A stretch of 64,000 nucleotides of DNA from Octopus sinensis (lineage: Eukaryota), in assembly GCF_006345805.1 (NCBI RefSeq), contig NC_043006.1, positions 23,994,001 to 24,058,000 on the forward strand. The letters are read 5' to 3'. The notes under the pieces were generated by a model. It was not told the origin of the DNA and made no database searches. It saw nothing but the letters and a program-made list of their open reading frames with translations. Of this stretch, positions 103 through 50,052 are shown piece by piece; positions within the stretch are counted from its first letter, which is position 1, and the number at the start of each line of letters is the position of its first letter. The translations under genes were made by a program, and so were the position numbers.

Positions 103-1020
103 TAAAGATCATGTCGTAGTCCACCATCCAGCAGGGAGGGCGCCTTGCGCGTCGAGATCTTCTCAAGCTGGGCACCTCATTCTCCCCCTCTCCACAATGG
201 TTGTCCGTCGAAGCGACAATCCTGCGAAGGTCCAAGACGTGTCGCGGCATTCCATCCACAGAGACGTTGTTTCTGGAATTGACCACAGTCACTGTTCCTC
301 TGCTCCATTGAGACGTACAGCGCGCTTTTGGTGGCTTAACCCAGACTTCCTCCCCTATTTTCTCTTCCTCGTGGCCCTCCGGCGCTTTGCTCGGGTACCT
401 CCATTCATATTTAAATACAGCTCTCTGCGGCACAGATTCCTCAGCTTGTCCGGATCGGGGAGACAAGTTGTACCAAAAAACTGCTTCAAGCGGCGAAATG
501 TGCCCTCTTTCCGCTATGGCCTTGACTGTCCGATGGTGCCTCTCTACGATCACGTTACCGCTCGGCCTATACGTTGCTCTGAACAAGCGACGCACCTTCC
601 ACCGATCAAGCATAAACCCTCAATGCTTCCGAACGAAACGCCGCCCCGTTGTCCATCAGCAGTTCTTCCACGGGACCTCTCTCTAAAAATATCCCGTTCA
701 AGATCTGCGCGATCTCGTCAGCAATGCCCGTTCTCAACTCCCTCCAAATGGCCAGCCGGCCCGGCCCGCAGTCGACCATGGAGAGATACATTCCCTGACG
801 GTAGTGCGTCACATCCACAGCTAGCCTTTTCCAGTTGTGCTCCACCGAAAGGTTTCCCTGCTCATGCCCACACGGAGCAGGGTCGATGGACTGACACCTG
901 TCACAGCTCCCGACCAATTTCCGGATGCTTCTCCTAGTGACTGACGTCAGCATCAAATTTCTTCGCCAGATACAGGGTCCTGTCCACACCCAGGTGATGC
1001 ATAGCATGCAGTCTCTTCAG
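103..1020 (-). pseudogene. Gypsy integrase (frameshifted)
   Basis: ORF 606..1007 has CDRCQSIDP, RLAVDVTHY and ELLMDNGAAF. The catalytic E region (AYRPSGNVIVERHHRTVK) continues in another frame below 600. Confidence 0.88.
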
Positions 1021-1027
1021 TTCAGAG

Positions 1028-2930
1028 TCATCCAACTGACACGCCGCAGCTATCCCTTTCCGGGCCTCCTCCGGTTCTTCCAACCACGCTCTTTTCACCC
1101 TGGTCAGTGCGTCCGTTTTTCTCCGAAGGCACGAAAACCACGTTCAGCTTCAGTCCGAACTCGGCGATCAATTCACCTAGAACTCCTAGACGGCGCTTCA
1201 CTAACATATCCGCGGCACCTTTCGTCCGCACTCTCCTTTCACCGGTGATCACCGATCCTACCCAGCCAAGCACAGTGGCCGAATCCGTCCGGATTTCAAT
1301 TGTGCGCAGCCCCCATTTCAGGGCCAAGTTCACCCCTTTCAGCACCGCATCTTATTCGGCGACATTGATGTGGTTGAAGTCATCTGCTTTCCGAAGCCAG
1401 GCTGCGTCCTCCACCGCAGCGTCTTCGATTGCCAACACAACCCCTATCGCTATACTACTAGCATCACACCAGACGGTCCCGCATTCCGTCTTGGGCACGT
1501 ACCAGTTCCCCCTGACCGTGTCTTCCGCTCTCGTCCTCTCTAGGATTTCCTGCATCATCGCCACCGTACCTTCTCCCACCTTGTCGCCCCAACTCTCCCT
1601 CTCCGCTCGTCTCTTGGTGTAACTGCACGCCGTGCGCAGCCATCCAGCGATCGGGTAGTGACCGACCAACTTCCCACACACCGAGAACAGCTCTCTCCTG
1701 CTGACGCTGGAACTCAGCTCTGGGATTTCATTCCCTCTCCGGAACACCAATTCACCTGATCCATCTCTTCGCAGCTTCATCCCCAGCGCGGCTCCCCCTT
1801 CCATCGACTCCGGTGGCTTCGCAATCAGTCCGAACTTCTCCAGATGACTAACTACCTCGTTGGCTGGCACTACAGTTTCGTCCACCAAAATGTCGTCAAT
1901 GTAGGAGCTGGTAGCCTTTCTAATCTTGCCGTCTTTCCCTAGGACTGACTTAAGCACTGCCGCCATGATCTTCGGAGCGGAATTCAGCCCGAAACCCAGC
2001 CTGGTTAAACAGTACGTCCGGCCTTTGTACCGCACCAGCTGATATCGCCACAGTTTGTCGCTCACATGGAGCTGCAAGTATGCCGATTTCAAGTCGACAA
2101 TCGTCGCTGCTTTGGTCGACTGTCTCCACGCACGTAACGTCTCACCACAAACGTCTGTCACCTCACCTCCCGTGTGACACGATATATGCTGGTTTAGCTC
2201 CCTGAAGTCCAGCACCGGTCTGACTTTTCCCTTCGTAGGTTGCACCACCGCCATCAGGGGTAGCACTCCGCCCGCTACCTCCTCCTCCCAAGGGACAAGG
2301 ACCCCTTCCTCGATCCACCTCTCCACCTCGTCTTCAAACTCAACCCTGGCGTGGCCTTTCAGGGTATGCTGGTAACAGCTCACTCTGTTTTTCAGCATCG
2401 GAGGCTCGTCCTTCCATCGCCACTCTATCGTCCACCGCTGACCATTGAACGCCGCCACAAAGTCTTTGTCCTCGATGGTGTAGGCGGCGCAGTCCCTCGC
2501 GGAGCTCTGCTCTCTCTCTCTCTGGCGATCCTGACTCGCAGTGCACAATTCCCCCACGCTTCCGAACTTGACCTCATCTCCCACAATACTGACGCCACCG
2601 AGGCAGTTGATGGAGTCCATCCCCATCACTACATCAACCCCATCTATCACGCGTTCATCCACAATTACCTGTAGCCTTAGCGTCGCGCCGCGCACCACTA
2701 TCTCTACCTTGCTGCTGCCTCTGCAACGGATTTCACTGCCATCGACCGCCCGGACGCTACTTGCCCCGTTCCATTTCTTCGTCACCCTTGAAGTCACAAG
2801 GGTGGTCGTACAGCCCGTATCCACGAGGGCCTTGAACGTCTTCCCCTCGGCCTCCACGTCAATTAATGGCAGCGTCTCCAAAAGCGCCTCTACTCGTTTG
2901 CGGGGAAAGTTCGAGAGCAGCAACTTCCCC
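1028..2930 (-). pseudogene. Gypsy protease-RT-RNase H, with a premature stop at 1352-1354 inside RNase H
   Basis: ORF 1352..3037 (DTG protease, YIDD RT, CDAS) ends INVAE*. The same frame resumes DAVLKGVNLALKWG...TDS (ORF 1028..1345). Confidence 0.93.
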
Positions 2931-3400
2931 GCGGTCGTTTCCCTGGTCGCAATCACGGGCGATGTGCCCTGTCTGCCTGCATCGATAGCAAACGGGCCCC
3001 GGTTGCGTAGTCCCGCGCCATATGCGACCCCTGACATCTAAAACACCGACCTGAGAACGGCCGCTGTCGTTGCATGGTAGGCTTCTGTACGTCTTTCTCC
3101 GGTCGTCGTCCGTCTTTACGCACCTCCATTACCGCCATCGCTATCGCCTTCCGCCCAGAGTGTCGCGTCAACACGCGGGCTTGAGTCACAAGTTCGCTCA
3201 GCGCCATCTTTTTAATCCCGGGCAATCGTTGTAGGTGAATCCCTACATCGTCGGGGAACCCATTTACAAACGCCAGTCGCGCTGCTCTCTCCATCCCTCC
3301 TTCTGTAAACCCAGCCAGCGTCGCTAACCTTCGAACTTCTGCCGCGTACTTGTCCACCTGTCCTCCCGTCCATCTGATCGTACCCAGCTTAGCAAAAGCT
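2931..3400 (-). pseudogene. Gypsy gag C-terminal part with two CCHC zinc knuckles
   Basis: CFRCQGSHMARD in ORF 2953..3357. A second knuckle CYRCRQTGHIARDC follows in a shifted frame. Confidence 0.85.
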
Positions 3401-3717
3401 AACAGATTGGATTTGGAGAAAGTACATTAGTCGCTTTTACTGTCTGTATACGTACGTGCGTACGTACGTAACAGCTACTTGTGATAAAGGACCCGAAATA
3501 CCTGTTACGTGGTAGCAGGGCATGCAAGAAATAGCAGCCAAATACTTTCTTTTCTGGGGAAAGGAGCCGTTTACACGTGATTTTGATGCGAAATAACTTG
3601 GAAAAGATTTTAAAAAACCAGCGTAACCACTCCGCTGCTGGGAAACTCAGACGTACGTATGTATGTATATATGTGTGTGTGTATGTATGTATGTATGTAT
3701 GTATGTATGTATGTATG

Positions 3718-19839: not shown

Positions 19840-20307
19840 CAAGGTCAACTTTGCCTTTCGTCCACTCAGGGGTCGATAAAATAAATACCAGTTGAGCACT
19901 CAATGATTCCAACAATAGGGGATCCTGTTGGTGCTGGTGCCATGTGAAAAGCACTTGTGTTGGTGCCATGTAAAAAAGCACCCAATACATTCTATAAAGT
20001 GGTTGCTATAAGAAAGGGCCTCCAGCCATAGAAACCATTCCAAAACAGGCAATGGAACTTGGTGCAGCTCCTATCAAACCAGCCAACCCATGCCAGCATG
20101 GAAAATGGATGTTAAATGATGGCGACAACGACAATGACATCAACCTACACAGAAAATAATTTGACTAATGCAAGTTTTAAAGTTAGCGAAATTGTTCAGT
20201 CGGAATTCATTGGGAATTTTATGATTGATTTTGAAATTTCCATTAATGTTACATGGAAATATAACTTTTTTTCTTGTATTGTATTGTTACAAATATAGAT
20301 TGCATCA

Positions 20308-20461
20308 TTATTTACATTATTTACATTCAACGGATATTTGTCCTCATCTTGTTTGTTATTAACACACCATTTCAGCTGATATACCCTCCAGCCTTCATCA
20401 GGTGTCTTGAGGAAATTTCAAACCTCGGTTCTCATTCCTAAGGTATTTTTCGATGTTGTTA

Positions 20462-20517
<56 letters not shown>

Positions 20518-20634
20518 ATTATTATTATTATTATTATTCTGGTCACTGCTTGGAATCGTACTCAGAATCTTGGGGTTAATAGCCCGCTCTCTTAACCACT
20601 ATGCCCGTAGTGTAGTGGTTAAGAGTGCATGTAT
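20308..20634 (-). mobile_element. tRNA-head/(TAA)n/HHR-tail element, copy 1
   Basis: Same family as 41589..41981. Short inverted head fragment at about 20606-20628; 12-bp duplication TAGATTGCATCA at 20296-20307 and 20635-20646. Confidence 0.8.
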
Positions 20635-21802: not shown

Positions 21803-22711
21803 GTAAGTGTTCTTCATACTTCATTCCTCTTTCTGTTCTGTTTTTGACAATTTAAAGTTTTAAAAGTCTTCAGTTGATTTGATTTCGCTTAATTTTCCTT
21901 GTTATTCTAATAATTATTTTCAGGTGACATATTTTTGCTCACATATACACTAACACACATTCATCCATATATACATACACGCATGCACATAAGCACACCC
22001 ACACACACACACATGTACATGCGCGCATGCATACACACACACATACACACACATACATGAATTATCTGTGTGCTTTGACTGTCATATATCAGCATTGTTG
22101 AAAGGCAGCAACTGGCAGAATCGTTAACATACCAAGCGAAATGCTTAGTGGTATTTCTTCTACTACTATGTTCTAAGTTCAAATTCCGCCAAGGTAAACT
22201 TTACGTTTCATCCATTCAGGGCTGATAAATCAAGTAGCAGTTGCACTGGGGGGGGGGGGTAATCTAATCGACATGCCCCTTCCCCAAAAATTTCAGGCCT
22301 TGTGCCTAGAGTAAAAAGGATATCTTTGTTGTTGACATCATAAAAATTCATAAACTTTCAGTGAATGTGAAATATTTTTTCTCTTTTACTGGTTTATCTT
22401 GAAGCAAATAAAGCTATAGATAATGATAGTTGGGGGCAGCCTTTGATTTTTTTCTATGCAGAAGGGTTTCGACATTGTATTTACATACAATCATTTATAT
22501 TGTATTTACATATAATGTTTACATTCTTTTACGTATTTCAGTCATTCAACTGCGGCCATGCTGGAGCACCACCTTTAGTCGAACAAATCGATACCAGGAC
22601 TTATTCTTTGTTAGCCTAGTACTTATTCTATCGATCTCTTTTGCTGAACCACTAAGTTACAAGGACATGAATGCACCAGCATTGGTTGTCAAGCAATGTC
22701 GGGGGGGGGGA

Positions 22712-22755
<44 letters not shown>

Positions 22756-22917
22756 ACAGGCTTCTTTCAGTTTCCGTCTACCGAATTACCTCACAAGGCT
22801 TTGGTCAGCCCAAGGCTATAGTAGAAGACACTTGATCAAGGTGCCATGCAGCGGGACTGAACCTGGAACCATGTGGTTGGTAAGCAAGCTACTTACCACC
22901 CAGCCACTCCTGTGCCC

Positions 22918-26366: not shown

Positions 26367-26571
26367 GTATGTAAAACACCTTTTTTTTATCATTTTTGGG
26401 AGGTGTAACAATACAGATTGGTGGATGTGAGATGTTTCAGTACAATCGTTTTGGTGCTGTCTATTTGGTGTTACTGATTCAATGCTGACTTATTTAACAT
26501 CAGACATTTTAATGTTTCTCTCCTTCTCCCTTCCTTCCTCCTGTTTATGTGTGTGGACATATATTTCTTTT

Positions 26572-26762
26572 TACAGTTCTATATTTAAGAGATGAGGAAT
26601 TATGTACATTATTTACATTCAACGGATATTTATTCTCATCTTGTTTGTTGTTAACACGTTTCGGTTGATATACCCTCCAGCTTTCATCAGGTGTCTTGGG
26701 GAAATTTCGAACCTGGGTTCTCATTCCTAAGGTATTTTTCGATGTTATTATCATTGTTATTA

Positions 26763-26811
<49 letters not shown>

Positions 26812-26865
26812 AGTTCAGGTCACTACTTGGAATCTAACTCGGAATCTTGGGGTTAGTAGCCCAAG
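26572..26865 (-). mobile_element. tRNA-head/(TAA)n/HHR-tail element, copy 2 (head truncated)
   Basis: Minus strand reads AAGACAC-CTGATGA-AAGCTGGAGGGTATATCAACC-GAAACGTGTT and ends AAATATAGAACTGT. Confidence 0.8.
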
Positions 26866-28252: not shown

Positions 28253-28849
28253 CGTTAGGAAGGGCATCCAGCTGTAGAAACACTGCCAGATAAGACTGGA
28301 GCCTGGTGCAGCCTTCTGGCTTCCCAGATCCCCGGTCGAACCGTCCAACCCATGCTAGCATGGAGAACGGACGTTAAACGACGATGATGATGATGATGAT
28401 GATATATATATATATTGTTGTATTTAGGAATGGTCATTTTGCCAGTTTAGCCAATAAAAACACACACACTATATATTTGGTGTTACTTTGCTTCAGTGTT
28501 ATTTATTTTTTACATTAATCTTAATCTTATTTCGGCCAGAGTTCTTTCGTCGCACTCCTGTGACCGCATCAGTGGTCCTTTACTTTCATCTTTCTTATTT
28601 GTGTGTCTCTCCTTACTAACCGTCAGCCATTTTGTATTTCTATTGTATTCATTTGCGCATGCGTATATCTCTGTGTGCGTCTATGTTTAGTTAGTGGGGG
28701 GGGGGGAATGCCTGTAATATTTGTATCTCCTGTTTATATCCGTTCGTGTAATCTGTTTTTGTTTTTGACTATTCTTATTTTGTTCATGTGTTTACACCCA
28801 CTTATTATTATTATTATTATTATTATTATCATCATCATTATTATTATTA

Positions 28850-40847: not shown

Positions 40848-41588
40848 GTAAGAATTTCAGGAAAACTCTCTCAATTTTTTTTTGTTTCTGAAGAGTGACA
40901 TGAGGATATTAACAAGAATGGATGATAATGACTGTACGAGTATGCTATTGTTGTTGTTTAGCATCCCCGCCTCCCACGAACACTATTGCAAAGTAAGATT
41001 TATGATCAAAGATATACCAGCCATGATCATATTGTCTTTTTTTAGAAAGGATACCTGAGATTACATCACCTAACGTTAGTGTTTAGCCCAAGGTCATCTC
41101 CTGTCAAGCAACCATATGGTCAAAGGTGTTCCAGATAGGATCACAGCATCTTTTCTTTTTTCAGACAGCGGCAATCTAGCAGAAATGTTAGCACGCCGGG
41201 CGAAATGCTTAGCAGTATTTCGTTTGCCGTTACATTCTGAGTTCAAATTCCGCCGAGGTCGACTTTGCCTTTCATCCTTTCGGGGTCGATAAATAAAGTA
41301 CCAGTTATGCACTGGGTCGATATAATCGACTTAATCCATTTGTCTGTCCTTGTTTGTCCTCTCTGTGTTTAGCACCTTGTGGGTAGTAAAGAAATAGGCA
41401 TTTCATCTGCCGTTACGTTCTGAGTTCAAATTCCGCGGAGGTCGACTTTGCCTTTCATCCATTCGGGGTCGATAAATTAAGTACCAATTACGCACTGGGG
41501 TCGATGTAATCGATTTAATTCCTTTGTCTCTCCTTGTTTGTCGCCTCTATGTTTCGCCACTTGAGGGCAATAAAGAAATAAGAATGTA

Positions 41589-41758
41589 ATTACATTATTT
41601 ACATTTGACAGATATTTGTCCTCATCTTGTTTGTTGTTAACACAACATTTCAGCTGATATACCCTCCAGCCTTTATCGGGTGTCTTGGAGCATATGGTGT
41701 AGTGGTTAAGAGTGCAGGCTACTAAACCCAAGATTCCAAGTTCGATTCCAGGCAGTGA

Positions 41759-41806
<48 letters not shown>

Positions 41807-41981
41807 CAACATTGAAAAATACCTTAGGAATGAGAACCCAGATTCAAAATTTCCCCAAGACAACTGATGAAGGCTGGAGAGTATATCAGCCGAAATGTTG
41901 TGTTAACAACAAACAAGATGACAAATATCTATCAAATGTAAATAATGTACATAATTCCTCATCTCTTAAATATAGAACTGT
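41589..41981 (+). mobile_element. tRNA-head/(TAA)n/HHR-tail element, copy 3 (most complete), preceded by an inverted copy of its own tail
   Basis: Head 41688-41760 (TGGTGTAGTGGTTAAG, GTTCGATTCC); (TAA)n; CTGATGA at 41864 with stem GGCTG/CAGCC and GAAA; inverted tail piece 41589-41687; duplication AGAATGTA at 41581-41588 and 41982-41989. Confidence 0.82.
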
Positions 41982-43698
41982 AGAATGTATTTAGAGATAC
42001 ATTATATGATCTGTTTTATCTTCTTTTTTTCCTAAAGGTGTTATTTAACAGCAGTTTCTAGCTGGTCAAAACGTCACATTTTCTATCCTTTATTGGCTTG
42101 TTATTTCTGTTGTTGATGATGTTGTAACTGGTGTTGCCATCTGCACTTTCGTTGACCTATTTTAAAGTATTTTTATAATCAATATTCCTAATAACTGCAA
42201 GGTGACAAGCTGGAAGAATTGTTAGCAAGATACTTAACTATCATTTTGTCCATCTTAATATTCTGGGTTGAAATTCGACCAAGATCAAAGTTACCTTTCA
42301 TCCTTTTGTGGTTGATAAAAATAAGCAAAATTTGGGCACTGTTAATCGAAAAGTTAACTTCTTTAACCATTAATCTGTTAACCAAACAGTTAACTTTGAT
42401 AACCATCAATCAGTTAATTCTTTAAAAATACAACGGAAGTTATCGTAAAATGTTAACATTGATTTTTATTATAGAAAAATTTTTTTAATCAGCTTTGGCT
42501 CTAAAACCACCTTTAAAAAGTGCCAAAACTCTAAAATCTGTTAACTTTAATTGAATTGAGTTAACAGAAGTTAATTATTCCAATAATGATTTCCACAGTT
42601 AACTTAAAAGTTGAATTGTTAACAAAAATGCTAACTTTGTTAATTAACGATCAACGGATTAACGGTTTGGTGCCCAGGTTTGAAAATAAGTTACAGTTGG
42701 GCACTGGGGTAGATATAATCAACTTACCCACAATCCCAAAATTGCTGGCCTTGTGCCAAAATTTGAAGTCAATATTCCTAGTAGTTGTGATTGATTTATT
42801 ATATGCACCAACATCACTTTTGATTCCAAGTTTAAATTCTGCTAAAGTTGAAATTGGTTTTTGGTTTCTTTCATCTCTTATTATAAAAGGCAGATTTTAT
42901 CTGCCTCCCTTTGTATCTCTTATTATAAAAGGCAGATTTTATCTGCCTCCCTTTCTATCTTATAGAAATCTACAATATAGGATTTCTTCAATTACAATTT
43001 ACCTAGCATTTTTAAGAGTAGAATGCATCGGGTCGTGCCAGGTCCACTTTTTAAAATTTCAACCCCAGTTAAGCGAAATTTAGAGAAAACTCACATTGTG
43101 GTGTATGAGTCAAATGCTTCTCTTAGTGTGGGATACAGCACATGCAAACACACACACACAGTGTGCAACGAATAAAGTGAAAGTAATTCACTTTCTGTAG
43201 TGAGTGACTCTTTCACTCTACATTCCCACTTCCACTTTACACACATAGACACGCAAATATATAAATAAAATTGTAAGCTAACGTGTGTGTGTGCGTCTGT
43301 GTGAGTGTGTGTGTGTGTGTGTGCGTGTGTGTGTGAGGATGTGTGTGTGTGTGTGTGTGCGCGTGTGCGTGAGTGTGTGACAGGAAAGTTTTTTACGACG
43401 AATATAAGACCTATATCCAAGTAGCAGAAAGATCGCCCAAAAGTGTATATAGATATTTAAATGTATTTAATAGAAATATTAAAATTACTAAGTCTCTCTA
43501 AAAGAGAACAACGGCAGCGTTTCCGGAAAATAATAGTTATCGCCATACTAATATGGCATTCTTATAAAAATAAGAATAAAGCTGTCCGCTTATTAGCTCC
43601 ATGAGGCCATCGCCTTAAGTTAGCTATTTGATACACAAACTGTATCCATATAACCTTCGAACAAGGGAGGTCAGTCGCTCCACACTACTTGACCGGCA

Positions 43699-43740
43699 GC
43701 TACAGACGCGTTTCGGGGTATTGCCCCTTTTCAATGCAGC
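43699..43740 (-). ncRNA. Minimal type I hammerhead ribozyme, U3-A8 core variant
   Basis: Reverse complement of 44268..44309, core intact. Confidence 0.8.
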
Positions 43741-44267
43741 GTAGCCAGACCAGTAGGTGTCGCTTCTGACAATCTCTGTTCGAAGGTTTTATTTACCTAG
43801 CTTCAGTGGAATACATCCACTTGTTTTCAATAATAGAAATATTAAAATTACTAAGTCTCTCTAAAAGAGAACAATGGCAGCGTTTCCGGAAAATAATAGT
43901 TATCGCCATACTAATATGGCATTCTTATAGAAATAAGAATAAAGCTGTCCGCTTATTAGCTCCATGAGGCCATCGCCTTAAGTTAGCTATTTGATACACA
44001 AACTGTATCCATATAACCTTCGAACAAGGGAGGTCAGTCGCTCCACACTACTTGACCGGACCGCTTTATTCTTATTTTTATAAGAATGCCATATAAGTAT
44101 GGCGATAACTATTATTTTCCGGAAACGCTGCCGTTGTTCTCTTTTAGAGAGACTTAGTAATTTTAATATTTCTATTATTGAAAACAAGTGGATGTATTCC
44201 ACCGAAGCTAGGTAAATAAAACCTTCGAACAGAGATTGTCAGAAGCGACACCTACTGGTCTGGCTAC

Positions 44268-44309
44268 GCTGCATTGAAAAGGGGCAATACCCCGAAACGC
44301 GTCTGTAGC
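44268..44309 (+). ncRNA. Minimal type I hammerhead ribozyme, U3-A8 core variant; predicted cleavage after C44303
   Basis: GCTGCA-TTGAAAA-GGGG caata CCCC-GAAA-CGCG-TC-TGTAGC: 6-bp stem I, 4-bp stem II, palindromic stem III ACGCGT, GUC triplet. Confidence 0.82.
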
Positions 44310-44630
44310 TGCCGGTCAAGTAGTGTGGAGCGACTGACCTCCCTTGTTCGAAGGTTATATGGATACAGTTTGTGTATCAAATAGCTAACTTAAGGCGATG
44401 GCCTCATGGAGCTAATAAGCGGACCGCTTTATTCTTATTTTTATAAGAATGCCATATTAGTATGGCGATAACTATTATTTTCCGGAAACGCTGCCGTTGT
44501 TCTCTTTTAGAGAGACTTAGTAATTTTAATATTTCTATTATTGAAAACAAGTGGATGTATTCCACCGAAGCTAGGAAAATAAAACCTTCGAACAGAGATT
44601 GTCAGAAGCGACACCTACTGGTCTGGCTAC

Positions 44631-44672
44631 GCTGCATTAAAAAGGGGCAATACCCCGAAACGCGTCTGTAGC
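44631..44672 (+). ncRNA. Hammerhead copy with a G5A core mutation (TTAAAAA), core probably inactive
   Basis: Identical to 44268..44309 except TTGAAAA changed to TTAAAAA. Confidence 0.7.
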
Positions 44673-45363
44673 TGCCGGTCAAGTAGTGTGGAGCGACTGA
44701 CCTCCCTTGTTCGAAGGTTATATGGATACAGTTTGTGTATCAAATAGCTAACTTAAGGCGATGGCCTCATGGAGCTAATAAGCGGACAGCTTTATTCTTA
44801 TTTTTATAAGAATGCCATATTAGTATGGCGATAACTATTATTAAATGTATTTATATATTCATCTATACACAGATGTATGTATAATGTGTGTGTATATATT
44901 TCCATAGAGGTAACCTTTCACTCCATACAAAGTTTTTTAGGACGAATATAAGATCTAAAGTTATCTCTAAGAAAAAGAAAGGTCGCCCAAAAGTGTATAT
45001 AGATATTTAAATGTATTTATATATTCATCTATACACACATGTATGTATAATGTGCGTGTATATATTTCCATAGAGGTAACCATTCAATCCATACAAAGTT
45101 TTTTAGGAAGAAAATATTTATATATAAAAGAAAGGTTGTGTGTCTGTCTACTCCGATTTAGATTCCTAACTACTCCCACATTTTGCAATGCAGTTTAACC
45201 AAAACCGGGTATCTTATAGTCGTGATTCATATCGAGCCCTTCTGGGTATTAGCGCGCGTCTACGATGAGTCTATGATTTTACAAATAATTTACCATCATT
45301 TTTTTCCATTTTAATGCATATTTTTTTAAATAAAGGGAAGTAACTCTCAAACTTCACACCAAT

Positions 45364-45860
45364 ATGCATGCTCATATGCGACGTAATATCACATCAGCAG
45401 CATTTCCTCACACCCTCCTTGCACTTGGCGAAGGCAAAATACCAGGGGATGAAAATGGTAATATTGCCATCGATTCCATTTGTACCATTGTTAAGACGCC
45501 TTCTGATCTCAGAGATGCAGTGTTCCCAGATCTACAAGCTAATTATCAGAATATGGATTGGATTGGCAAAAAGGCTATACTGGCCCCGAGGAATAAAACT
45601 GTTCACCATATTAATGATGAAATGCTAAAACTCATTCCTGGGGAAGTCTATGTATATCAGTCTATCGATACAACTCCTGACCCAGAGGACGTCATCAACT
45701 ATCCAATAGAGGTACTCAATTCCTTTGAGCACCCCGGACTACCACCACACTTTCTCAAACTTAAAGTTGGTGCCCCTATAATGCTCATCAGAAATTTGGT
45801 TCCCCCAAAACAATGCAATGGCACACGTTTGATCGTTAAGTCCTTATCGCCCACCGTAAG
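45364..45860 (+). pseudogene. Helitron RepHel Pif1-like helicase fragment
   Basis: AILAPRN..V..IN, YPIEVLNS...GLPPH.LKLKVGAPIMLIRNL...CNGTRLIV. Confidence 0.92.
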
Positions 45861-45982
45861 CTTATATCAATATTTGCCTGAATAATCATCATAATTCAGT
45901 GCAATCATTAACAGTACTTTCAAGCAATTCAGCCCCGAGCAACGCCGGGCAATTCTGCTAGTGGTTAATAAAATATAAGCAG

Positions 45983-48336: not shown

Positions 48337-49458
48337 CTTTTGCAGTTAAACACTGAATATTTTTGAAGCATATTAATATGTTGCAACATTCTAGCATTGA
48401 CAAAATGCAGCTAAAGCGAGAAAAAGGGATGGAGAGATAGAATGGGTGGGTGGGTGAGTTCACAAGAGTGTGAAAACAATATGACAGATGATTACAGAAT
48501 GGGATTTAATATTTAAGGTTCCCACGCCAAGTTTTATTCGGTGAGCTCACTTCAGGGAAAAGACCATGGGGTTGCACTCTTTGAAGATTCAAGGGCCAAC
48601 TCAAAGCAACACCGAAAGCCATTGGAACTGAGCCCAAATTGTTTGAAACACAAGCCCAAGACTACCAAGTGGCAATGTTCCATTACCATTAGGACCAAAA
48701 ACTCCGATACCATCAGAAAAGAAAAAGGAAATCAAATAACAGGCGGGAAAGGCTCAACAAAATCAACTTCATCCTTCAGCAACATTGTCATGCAGTCAAA
48801 GCTATCAACTCTTTTATGCAAAAATTGGTCTACAGCAGAAATTCTTAAACTTTTGGGGCCACTGTCCCCCTCATTGCCACATAATACCCTCAGTGGCCCC
48901 ATTCCTATTTTTGTGTATAAATGAATATTTTACATTTTACTAATTTATATATACTGAGCTTGAGGAACCTGCACAAAGTAGATGTAGGCATTTTAAAATC
49001 AAGGCTGGACCTCTTCCTGTTGAGAGTCCCAGATGAACCTACCTCTCACCAAGAGGTGCAAATGAGGGCAGCTACATCAAACTCCATTCTTCACCAAGTG
49101 CCACATATTGGAGGAGGCTCTCCGTAATGACGGTGTAGCAAAACAGCGGTGCATCAGCATGGCCATGGCCACAGCTCTGAGTTGAAACTATAGTAAAAAA
49201 AAAAATGCTATAATAATATTAAAATTTCATAAGCATCCCCCAAGTTCAGTTCTTGGTTGTTGTAGTAATTTTGTTCACTCTAAACCAGAGGTTCTCAAAC
49301 TTTTTGGGACACTGCCCCCCCCCCCATCATGGCCACATGATACCCTCAGTGTCCCCACCCCAAATTTTATGTATAGATAAATATTTTATATTTTACTAAT
49401 TTATATATACTATGAATCATTTGATATATAATATAATATTATATAATTTGTACACAAT

Positions 49459-49633
49459 ACAGTTCTATATTTAAGAGATGAAGAATTATGCACATTAATT
49501 ACATTATTTACAATTGACAATATTTGTCCTCGTCTTTGTTGCTAACACGTTTCAGCTGGTATACCCTCCACCCTTCATCAGGTATCTTGGGGAAATTTCA
49601 AACCTGGGTTCTCATTCCTATGGTATTTTTCGA

Positions 49634-49677
<44 letters not shown>

Positions 49678-49879
49678 TCACTGCCTGAAATCGAACTCGG
49701 AATCTTGGGGTTAGTAGCCCGCACTCTTAACCACTATGTCATATGCCCACGGGCATATAATATTAATAATAATAATAATAATAATATTAATAATAATATA
49801 ATAATAATAATAATAATAATATAATAATAATATTAATAATAATAATAATAATATAATATAATAATAATAATAATAATAA

Positions 49880-49924
<45 letters not shown>

Positions 49925-50052
49925 TTCGAAAAATAGCTTAAGGATGAGAACCCAGGTTCGAAATTTCCCCAAGACACCTGATGAAGGCTGGAAACGTGTT
50001 AACAACAAACAAGATGAGGACAAATATCCGTCTATTGTAAATGATGTGAATA
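49459..50052 (-). mobile_element. tRNA-head/(TAA)n/HHR-tail element, copy 4, with a long inverted partial copy
   Basis: Complete minus copy about 49459-49748, inverted plus copy about 49751-50050. Flanks TTGTACACAATAC (49448-49460) and TTGTATACAATAC (50053-50065). Confidence 0.8.

Follow-up and report, generated by a model that had tools for sequence, protein, structure and literature searches.

In Penelope-like elements (PLEs) of the Penelope/Poseidon type, such as PAc of Anolis carolinensis, one open reading frame (ORF) of about 835 codons encodes a reverse transcriptase (RT) with a C-terminal GIY-YIG endonuclease; according to the accessible part of that work, a hammerhead ribozyme lies over the ORF start, two internal 3' ends stand 30-40 nt apart in the early ORF, and partial tandems, inverted 5' copies and AT-rich targets are found (PMC11167929). 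The Schistosoma repeats Sm-alpha and Sj-alpha consist of a tRNA-related RNA polymerase III (Pol III) promoter with a type I hammerhead after it, and number tens of thousands of copies; in the available text, Sm-alpha is described as non-coding and often tandem, and no autonomous partner is named (PMC6765202, PMC2770079, PMC8490949). Animal non-LTR retrozymes are non-coding hammerhead repeats homologous to the pseudo-long terminal repeats (pLTRs) of PLEs, defined, in the portion available, by head-to-tail tandems with at least two ribozymes (bioRxiv 10.64898/2026.07.22.740005). The TRIMp3 elements Cassandra, Helenus and Ajax are non-autonomous LTR elements carrying a small-RNA-derived Pol III promoter within the terminal repeat, and their autonomous partners are argued, in the part of the source at hand, to need RNA polymerase II (Pol II) (PMC10886601). 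We analysed a stretch of 64,000 nucleotides of the Octopus sinensis genome (assembly GCF_006345805.1, contig NC_043006.1, positions 23,994,001 to 24,058,000 of the forward strand; hereafter the window), in which a repeat at 41581-41989 combines a tRNA-like head, an internal (TAA)n and a hammerhead-bearing tail. The initial annotation had taken it for a separate non-autonomous short interspersed element (SINE) parasitising a PLE. This is not supported, as head, (TAA)n, ribozyme and tail form one stretch of an autonomous PLE, and comparison of its genomic copies makes it almost certain that the repeat is the solo pLTR of an autonomous PLE of the same genome, probably of the Penelope/Poseidon type.

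The octopus element shares with PAc-type PLEs all the features listed above, but its pLTR differs by a tRNA-derived A and B box and a (TAA)n tract, and the element is present mostly as solo pLTRs that start at the head. Unlike Sm-alpha, it is dispersed as monomers or inverted pairs, and its parent is an identified coding PLE with the same head. Tandem arrays such as those of the retrozymes are not seen, but a tRNA head, target-site duplications (TSDs) and a tail with a long (L) and a short (S) 3' end are present. In contrast to the TRIMp3 elements, the promoter-like sequence lies in the autonomous PLE itself.

The evidence for this parent comes from both ends of the repeat. The parent was traced by extending upstream the sequence common to single copies, which is found at 13 of 94 heads and encodes a GIY-YIG-type C-terminus. 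When loci were anchored on the ORF, the tRNA head stood directly behind the RT-endonuclease ORF in 30 of 30 (three near-identical copies and the query locus included), with a gap of 29 nt from the stop codon. On the other side, the tail continues into the RT-endonuclease ORF at loci L264, L268, L273, L280, L285, L289 and L290. The boundaries drawn in the initial annotation therefore do not hold, since the sequence runs on into the PLE ORF on both sides. The unit, of about 2.7 kb, is ordered as ORF stop, 29 nt, tRNA head, (TAA)n, ATG, hammerhead, two 3' end sites and rest of the ORF; the tail encodes the first ~52 codons, from an ATG at tail position 20 in the column majority. Head and tail flank the ORF at both ends, in a pLTR or partial tandem layout, at L273, L290 and L268, and L313 and L316 are true tandem copies.

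The column-majority frame is open over 841 codons and includes YVDD and the GIY-YIG-type motif VYSIPCSC; this frame and its alignment to RT-bearing homologues place RT and GIY-YIG endonuclease in one ORF. Two natural C-terminal fragments had no Pfam match, so that the endonuclease is assigned by alignment. Among 127 RT-bearing homologues, an 836-aa Anolis protein, which we infer to be the PAc protein, is 33% identical, and the peptide across the ribozyme region has a similar counterpart in homologue P0005. No CxxC linker is present in the 100 aa before the endonuclease, and its absence from this sequence points to the Penelope/Poseidon clade. A metagenome search for relatives found none. The family is probably inactive, as no unbroken ORF was seen among the copies of the ORF-anchored and 5'-ORF searches.

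The abundant Neptune-like PLEs, the main yield of a Pfam GIY-YIG search, were rejected as the partner, their pLTR and ribozyme being unlike the tail, and closely spaced ribozyme pairs had no matching PLE ORF between them. One young Neptune-like family (L101 1-6508, also L102-L105 and L108) has an intact 781-codon RT/GIY-YIG ORF, an upstream 479-codon frame without Pfam match, a unit of ~5.9 kb and its own hammerhead; its pLTR (L101) includes a ~280-bp stretch common to other repeats.

The element carries a predicted hammerhead ribozyme. The column majority of 184 aligned tail arms reproduces the consensus reconstructed earlier from the window copies: a 5-bp stem I, CUGAUGA, an extra A, G10.1-C11.1, stem II, GAAA, a palindromic stem III and a GUU cut site. 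It agrees with a type I minimal hammerhead in its CUGANGA/GAAA/UH core, extra base after A9, G10.1-C11.1 pair, palindromic stem III and short stem I, a feature set listed for metazoan PLE minimal hammerheads in the accessible part of PMC4209133. The 41-nt motif is found letter for letter 975 times in the 2.72-Gb genome, versus 0 for a reversed-pattern control, and these exact copies remove the earlier caveat that no motif was fully intact. The core is kept in 98 of the 184 arms, a conservation inflated by the inclusion of loci picked on the exact motif, and decay is CpG-heavy (4% at non-CpG versus 21% at CpG positions, in a sample that favours good copies). Within the window, all core letters are kept in one of six arms, whose stems I and III are altered. 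The fold of minimum free energy of the monomer pairs part of the hammerhead core. Elsewhere, hammerhead-like motifs with the same palindromic stem III and an altered first core box lie near fragments of other PLE families (L053/L054 and L069/L070).

The tRNA-derived head with A and B boxes, a hallmark of SINEs, is borne out by sequence. In the majority of 112 heads, the A box equals the consensus, the B box matches it at 10 of 11 letters and their spacing is 33 nt (consensus as given in the available text of PMC8969392); both boxes are thus near consensus although the cloverleaf has been lost. Among 27 genomic tRNA sequences of 7 isotypes, tRNA-Arg(TCT) is the best match (z 7-9 versus shuffles), and the derivation from tRNA-Arg is tentative because 7 isotypes were compared. 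Neither a tRNA nor a hammerhead was called by Rfam, be it in the window (E<=1) or on a good copy (E<=10), and ARAGORN called no tRNA in 30 loci or the window; head and ribozyme are accordingly identified by motif and alignment rather than by a family score. The linkage of head and tail is confirmed genome-wide, with a tail in 30 of 30 head-anchored loci (29 on the same strand) and a head without nearby tail in one of 130 clusters, interrupted copies counted. The (TAA)n tract is also a landing site for other repeats, which split head from tail at L011, L019, L166, L171, L183, L191 and L200; at L183 the intruder is a 3-kb long interspersed element (LINE). At L007 (about 1330-1500), a copy adjoins degenerate telomere-like TTAGGG repeats.

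Mobilisation by a PLE is strongly supported by the insertion signature. Among 197 tail matches, 3' ends are bimodal, with 97 short (137-160), 90 long (167-176) and 10 elsewhere, the S and L sites being ~30 nt apart. This difference corresponds to the PLE 'tail' (PMC8557442), which for PAc is delimited by two RT start sites that lie within the early ORF (PMC11167929), both as stated in the accessible text. A divergent inverted piece is present in 73 of 130 clusters and tails on both arms in 65, of which 60 pair one long with one short end, that is, a tail of 30-40 nt at one end together with an inverted 5' copy. In sets not anchored on the long end the pairing holds in 38 of 42, or in 38 of the 39 with both ends classed (p=7e-11). 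Exact flank duplications of at least 8 bp, most often of 12 bp (lengths uncertain by 1-2 nt), occur in 43 of 61 loci, versus 2.6% of 3000 shuffled pairs. Inverted 5' copies, ~12-bp TSDs and L/S ends, in this genome-wide sample, are hallmarks of PLE rather than LINE insertion, as had been proposed. Because the two arms overlap in content yet differ at their 3' ends, two-armed copies would derive from two cDNAs and not from one folded back. Very small inverted ends, suspected in single-armed copies, were present in just 2 of 62, and this idea was rejected.

Single copies and inverted pairs make up most of the 130 clusters, a few contain direct doublets (L186, L187, L196, L198), and the head-to-tail arrays with at least two ribozymes that define retrozymes were not found. 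In 8 of 30 loci picked on early-ORF sequence, the 3' end lies 223-259 nt past the long site, which indicates that at least some short products stem from ORF-containing RNA. This third 3'-end cluster inside the ORF (L299, L301, L303, L306, L309, L311, L318, L322), usually with the next truncated copy directly after it, is possibly a minor RT start site. Eight 50-kb blocks taken without selection contained three loci, and exact motif counts corrected for divergence give roughly 10^4 arms genome-wide; a calibration of copy number on ORF-anchored loci was too noisy and was set aside.

All four window loci with tRNA-like head, internal (TAA)n and tail were recovered and are 78-94% alike. The focal copy lies between 8-bp TSDs (41581-41588, identical to 41982-41989). 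An inverted, 5'-truncated second arm at 41589-41688 (minus strand) ends at the S site, as judged from sequence and the S/L pairing rule. It is followed on the plus strand by the head at 41690-41762 (A box 41695-41705, B box 41740-41749, tRNA-Arg(TCT) as best match), an (AAT)n tract at 41763-41810 whose length differs between copies, and the first ~51 codons of the PLE ORF, from the ATG at 41830 up to the L site at 41981, in a frame that is open in this copy. The type I minimal hammerhead motif overlaps the ORF at 41859-41904, with a predicted cut after 41899 and with stems I and III changed; the ~30-nt PLE 'tail' from S to L occupies 41952-41981, in keeping with the bimodal ends and with the accessible parts of PMC11167929 and PMC8557442. 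The second copy (20308-20634, minus strand, S end) has a short inverted head piece at 20610-20634 and an exact 12-bp duplication at 20296 and 20635. The third (26569-26863, minus strand, L end), given as 26572 in the initial annotation, has to be corrected, as it is 5'-truncated inside the head, begins at head position 28 and hence has no A box; it also has a 3-nt deletion at the ribozyme cut site. The fourth (49460-50052) is two-armed, with an L arm on the minus strand (to 49748) and an S arm on the plus strand (to ~50050), and flank comparison gives a 12-bp duplication with one mismatch at 49448 and 50053. The flanking duplications previously noted for three copies are thus real at 20308, 41589 and 49460 (12, 8 and 12 bp), and none was seen at the 26572 copy. 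Inverted partial copies do exist in three loci, but that at 20610-20634 amounts to merely ~20 nt of head. As noted before, there is no simple-repeat 3' end, the tail being PLE coding sequence.

The role of the tRNA-derived boxes is less certain than the nature of the repeat. From the sequence of the copies, we consider it somewhat probable that Pol III initiates at the head, the A and B boxes of this solo pLTR thereby being the likely Pol III promoter of the PLE. Exact genome-wide counts fall across the head, from 4415 (+32..+59) and 2268 (+1..+28) to 669 (-38..-13), and the truncation hazard of 101 arms peaks at -10..+7, at 0.04-0.06 per nt versus 0.001-0.005 in the 3' half of the head. Among 72 arms that reach +1/+2, 11 extend further upstream, 29 are joined to an inverted head and the other 32 stop within 10 nt, namely 14 at -2..-4, 10 at -6..-8, 7 at 0/-1 and one at -10. 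Two ORF-bearing copies, L273 and L308, start at -2 with unrelated flank beyond; the seven distinct ORF-bearing copies with a 5' head comprise these two, two of hairpin type, one truncated and two true tandems. Positions -2 and -6 are purines after pyrimidines, as Pol III prefers for its start sites, and a TATA-like word lies near -36. Finally, the unit has no run of at least four T (T4) in 2717 sense nt, versus 32 in antisense, while nine other retroelement ORFs of the same genome have 1-10 such runs, in line with their nulls; T4 is the commonest first run behind the tRNA genes of this genome (16 of 38).

Several observations weigh against a Pol III promoter. The T4 deficit is modest (0 runs, where synonymous shuffles predict 2.9-3.6; P 0.02-0.04), and order-1 and order-2 Markov nulls give no significance (P 0.09 and 0.19). 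The low Phe content behind it is common to the six closest homologues, and was therefore set aside as support for terminator avoidance. The fall in copy number is broad (+30 to -10), without a single cliff, several -7 ends look like short fold-backs, and the samples favour well-conserved copies. An uncapped Pol III RNA would still need translating. Contigs of three runs guessed to be RNA and of one unlabelled run cover most of the unit, and start, strand and level are not readable from them. Characterised PLE promoters have introns or poly(A) tails, that is, they are of Pol II type, in the part of PMC8557442 at hand.

These points leave room for an alternative, which we hold to be rather unlikely, whereby the copies are ordinary 5'-truncated PLE copies, made from Pol II or read-through RNA, the tRNA piece is a passenger in the pLTR, and the 5' ends arise from RT stalling or folding back at the tRNA structure and hairpin. 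A native hairpin is indeed centred exactly on head +1 and used by 29 of the 72 junctions, truncation rises broadly through the head, and 5' truncation and inverted copies are standard in PLEs (accessible text of PMC8557442 and PMC8969392). The true tandem copies L313 and L316, with ORF upstream, also fit, and since they exist, RNAs must also extend upstream of the head. However, the 14 arms that stop at -2..-4 adjoin flank or tail without fold-back, both boxes have stayed near consensus while the cloverleaf was lost, and the 2.7 kb contain no T4 run.

An independent amplification of the short copies is less probable still. Born as solo pLTRs, they would have spread as a true PLE-dependent SINE with a self-derived tail, the autonomous element using another promoter. 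Short copies do retain the A and B boxes as well as the two RT start sites, and they are about 3 times as numerous as ORF-linked heads (11 of 72 arms continuing upstream), and there are precedents in Sm-alpha and in non-autonomous Chlamys elements, as far as the available parts of PMC6765202 and PMC8557442 go. The three commonest shared indels are, however, in frame (-3, -3 and +9, in 17, 13 and 9 of 184 arms) whereas most types of rare indel (47 of 66) shift the frame, and the -3 and +9 variants that were checked are present in ORF-anchored loci as well. No SINE lineage separate from the ORF-linked pLTRs is thus seen, although the indel test is not decisive, because five frameshifting indels are common to 3-7 arms each and the in-frame ones lie at slippage-prone sites. 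The last alternative, a LINE-dependent SINE or a chance neighbourhood of microsatellite and tRNA pseudogene, is refuted by the head behind the PLE ORF and the tail running into it: the tRNA head and (TAA)n look like components of an ordinary SINE, and LINE and SINE insertions often lie within (TAA)n, but a LINE-borrowed 3' end with a simple-repeat tail is not found, the tail is PLE coding sequence, the ends obey the L/S rule and the head occurs without tail in one of 130 clusters.

Under the favoured reading, a PLE with a Pol III promoter in its pLTR, the RNA would have its 5' end on a purine 2 or 6 nt ahead of the head and would run on through the ORF, which is possible because the unit has no T4 terminator. 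The PLE protein would nick both target strands ~12 bp apart, and two cDNAs would be primed, one per internal start site. The SINE-like copies of ~300 nt would come from priming in the 5'-proximal pLTR of the RNA, and the long, 5'-truncated ones from priming in the distal pLTR; cDNA ends would then join by microhomology, most often at the head-start hairpin, and ribozyme cleavage would probably be dispensable for insertion. That Pol III supplies the full coding RNA is, on sequence evidence, a possibility that we regard as short of probable. The same caution applies to the full scenario, in which a coding PLE with a captured tRNA promoter, its 2.7-kb unit kept terminator-free, may, through internal priming, turn its own RNA leader into some ten thousand SINE-like copies.

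The window contains other repeats. Overlapping 99%-perfect inverted repeats of 170-530 nt at 43468-44842 are a young foldback element or an assembly artefact. Fragments at 606-3426 (minus strand) are presumably gag/pol remains of a Gypsy-like LTR retrotransposon, and a 183-aa frame at 45334-45885 resembles what we take to be a PIF1-type helicase, perhaps a Helitron remnant. Families D15-D20 (e.g. 22101-22268, 22818-22914, 28334-28415) are other abundant SINE-like repeats with ordinary simple-repeat tails, unrelated to the element.

Relative to Sm-alpha, the retrozymes and TRIMp3, what is unusual is the presence of a tRNA promoter-like sequence and a predicted hammerhead in the pLTR of a coding PLE. 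The available parts of PMC11167929, PMC8557442 and PMC4209133 do not mention a tRNA-derived promoter in a PLE pLTR, and the accessible text of the cephalopod repeat papers PMC6962438 and PMC13282606 and of the curation guide PMC8969392 does not mention such a PLE. None was found in the titles and abstract openings searched. Repbase, Dfam, subscription journals and supplements lie outside that search, and a database may already list such a PLE. In repeat annotation, the copies would likely pass for a tRNA SINE and the PLE would go unrecognised. Whatever the polymerase, the one-long-one-short rule gives genome-scale support for both internal RT start sites serving one insertion, a step left open by the in vitro work on PAc. 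In the part of the literature that was searched, the retroelements described as having Pol III promoters are non-coding passengers (SINEs, TRIMp3). If our reading is true, a coding element on Pol III would raise the question of how an uncapped RNA is translated. It would also provide a concrete origin for repeats that, like Sm-alpha, combine a tRNA part with a hammerhead, and a route by which SINEs of the Sm-alpha type may arise out of a PLE pLTR.
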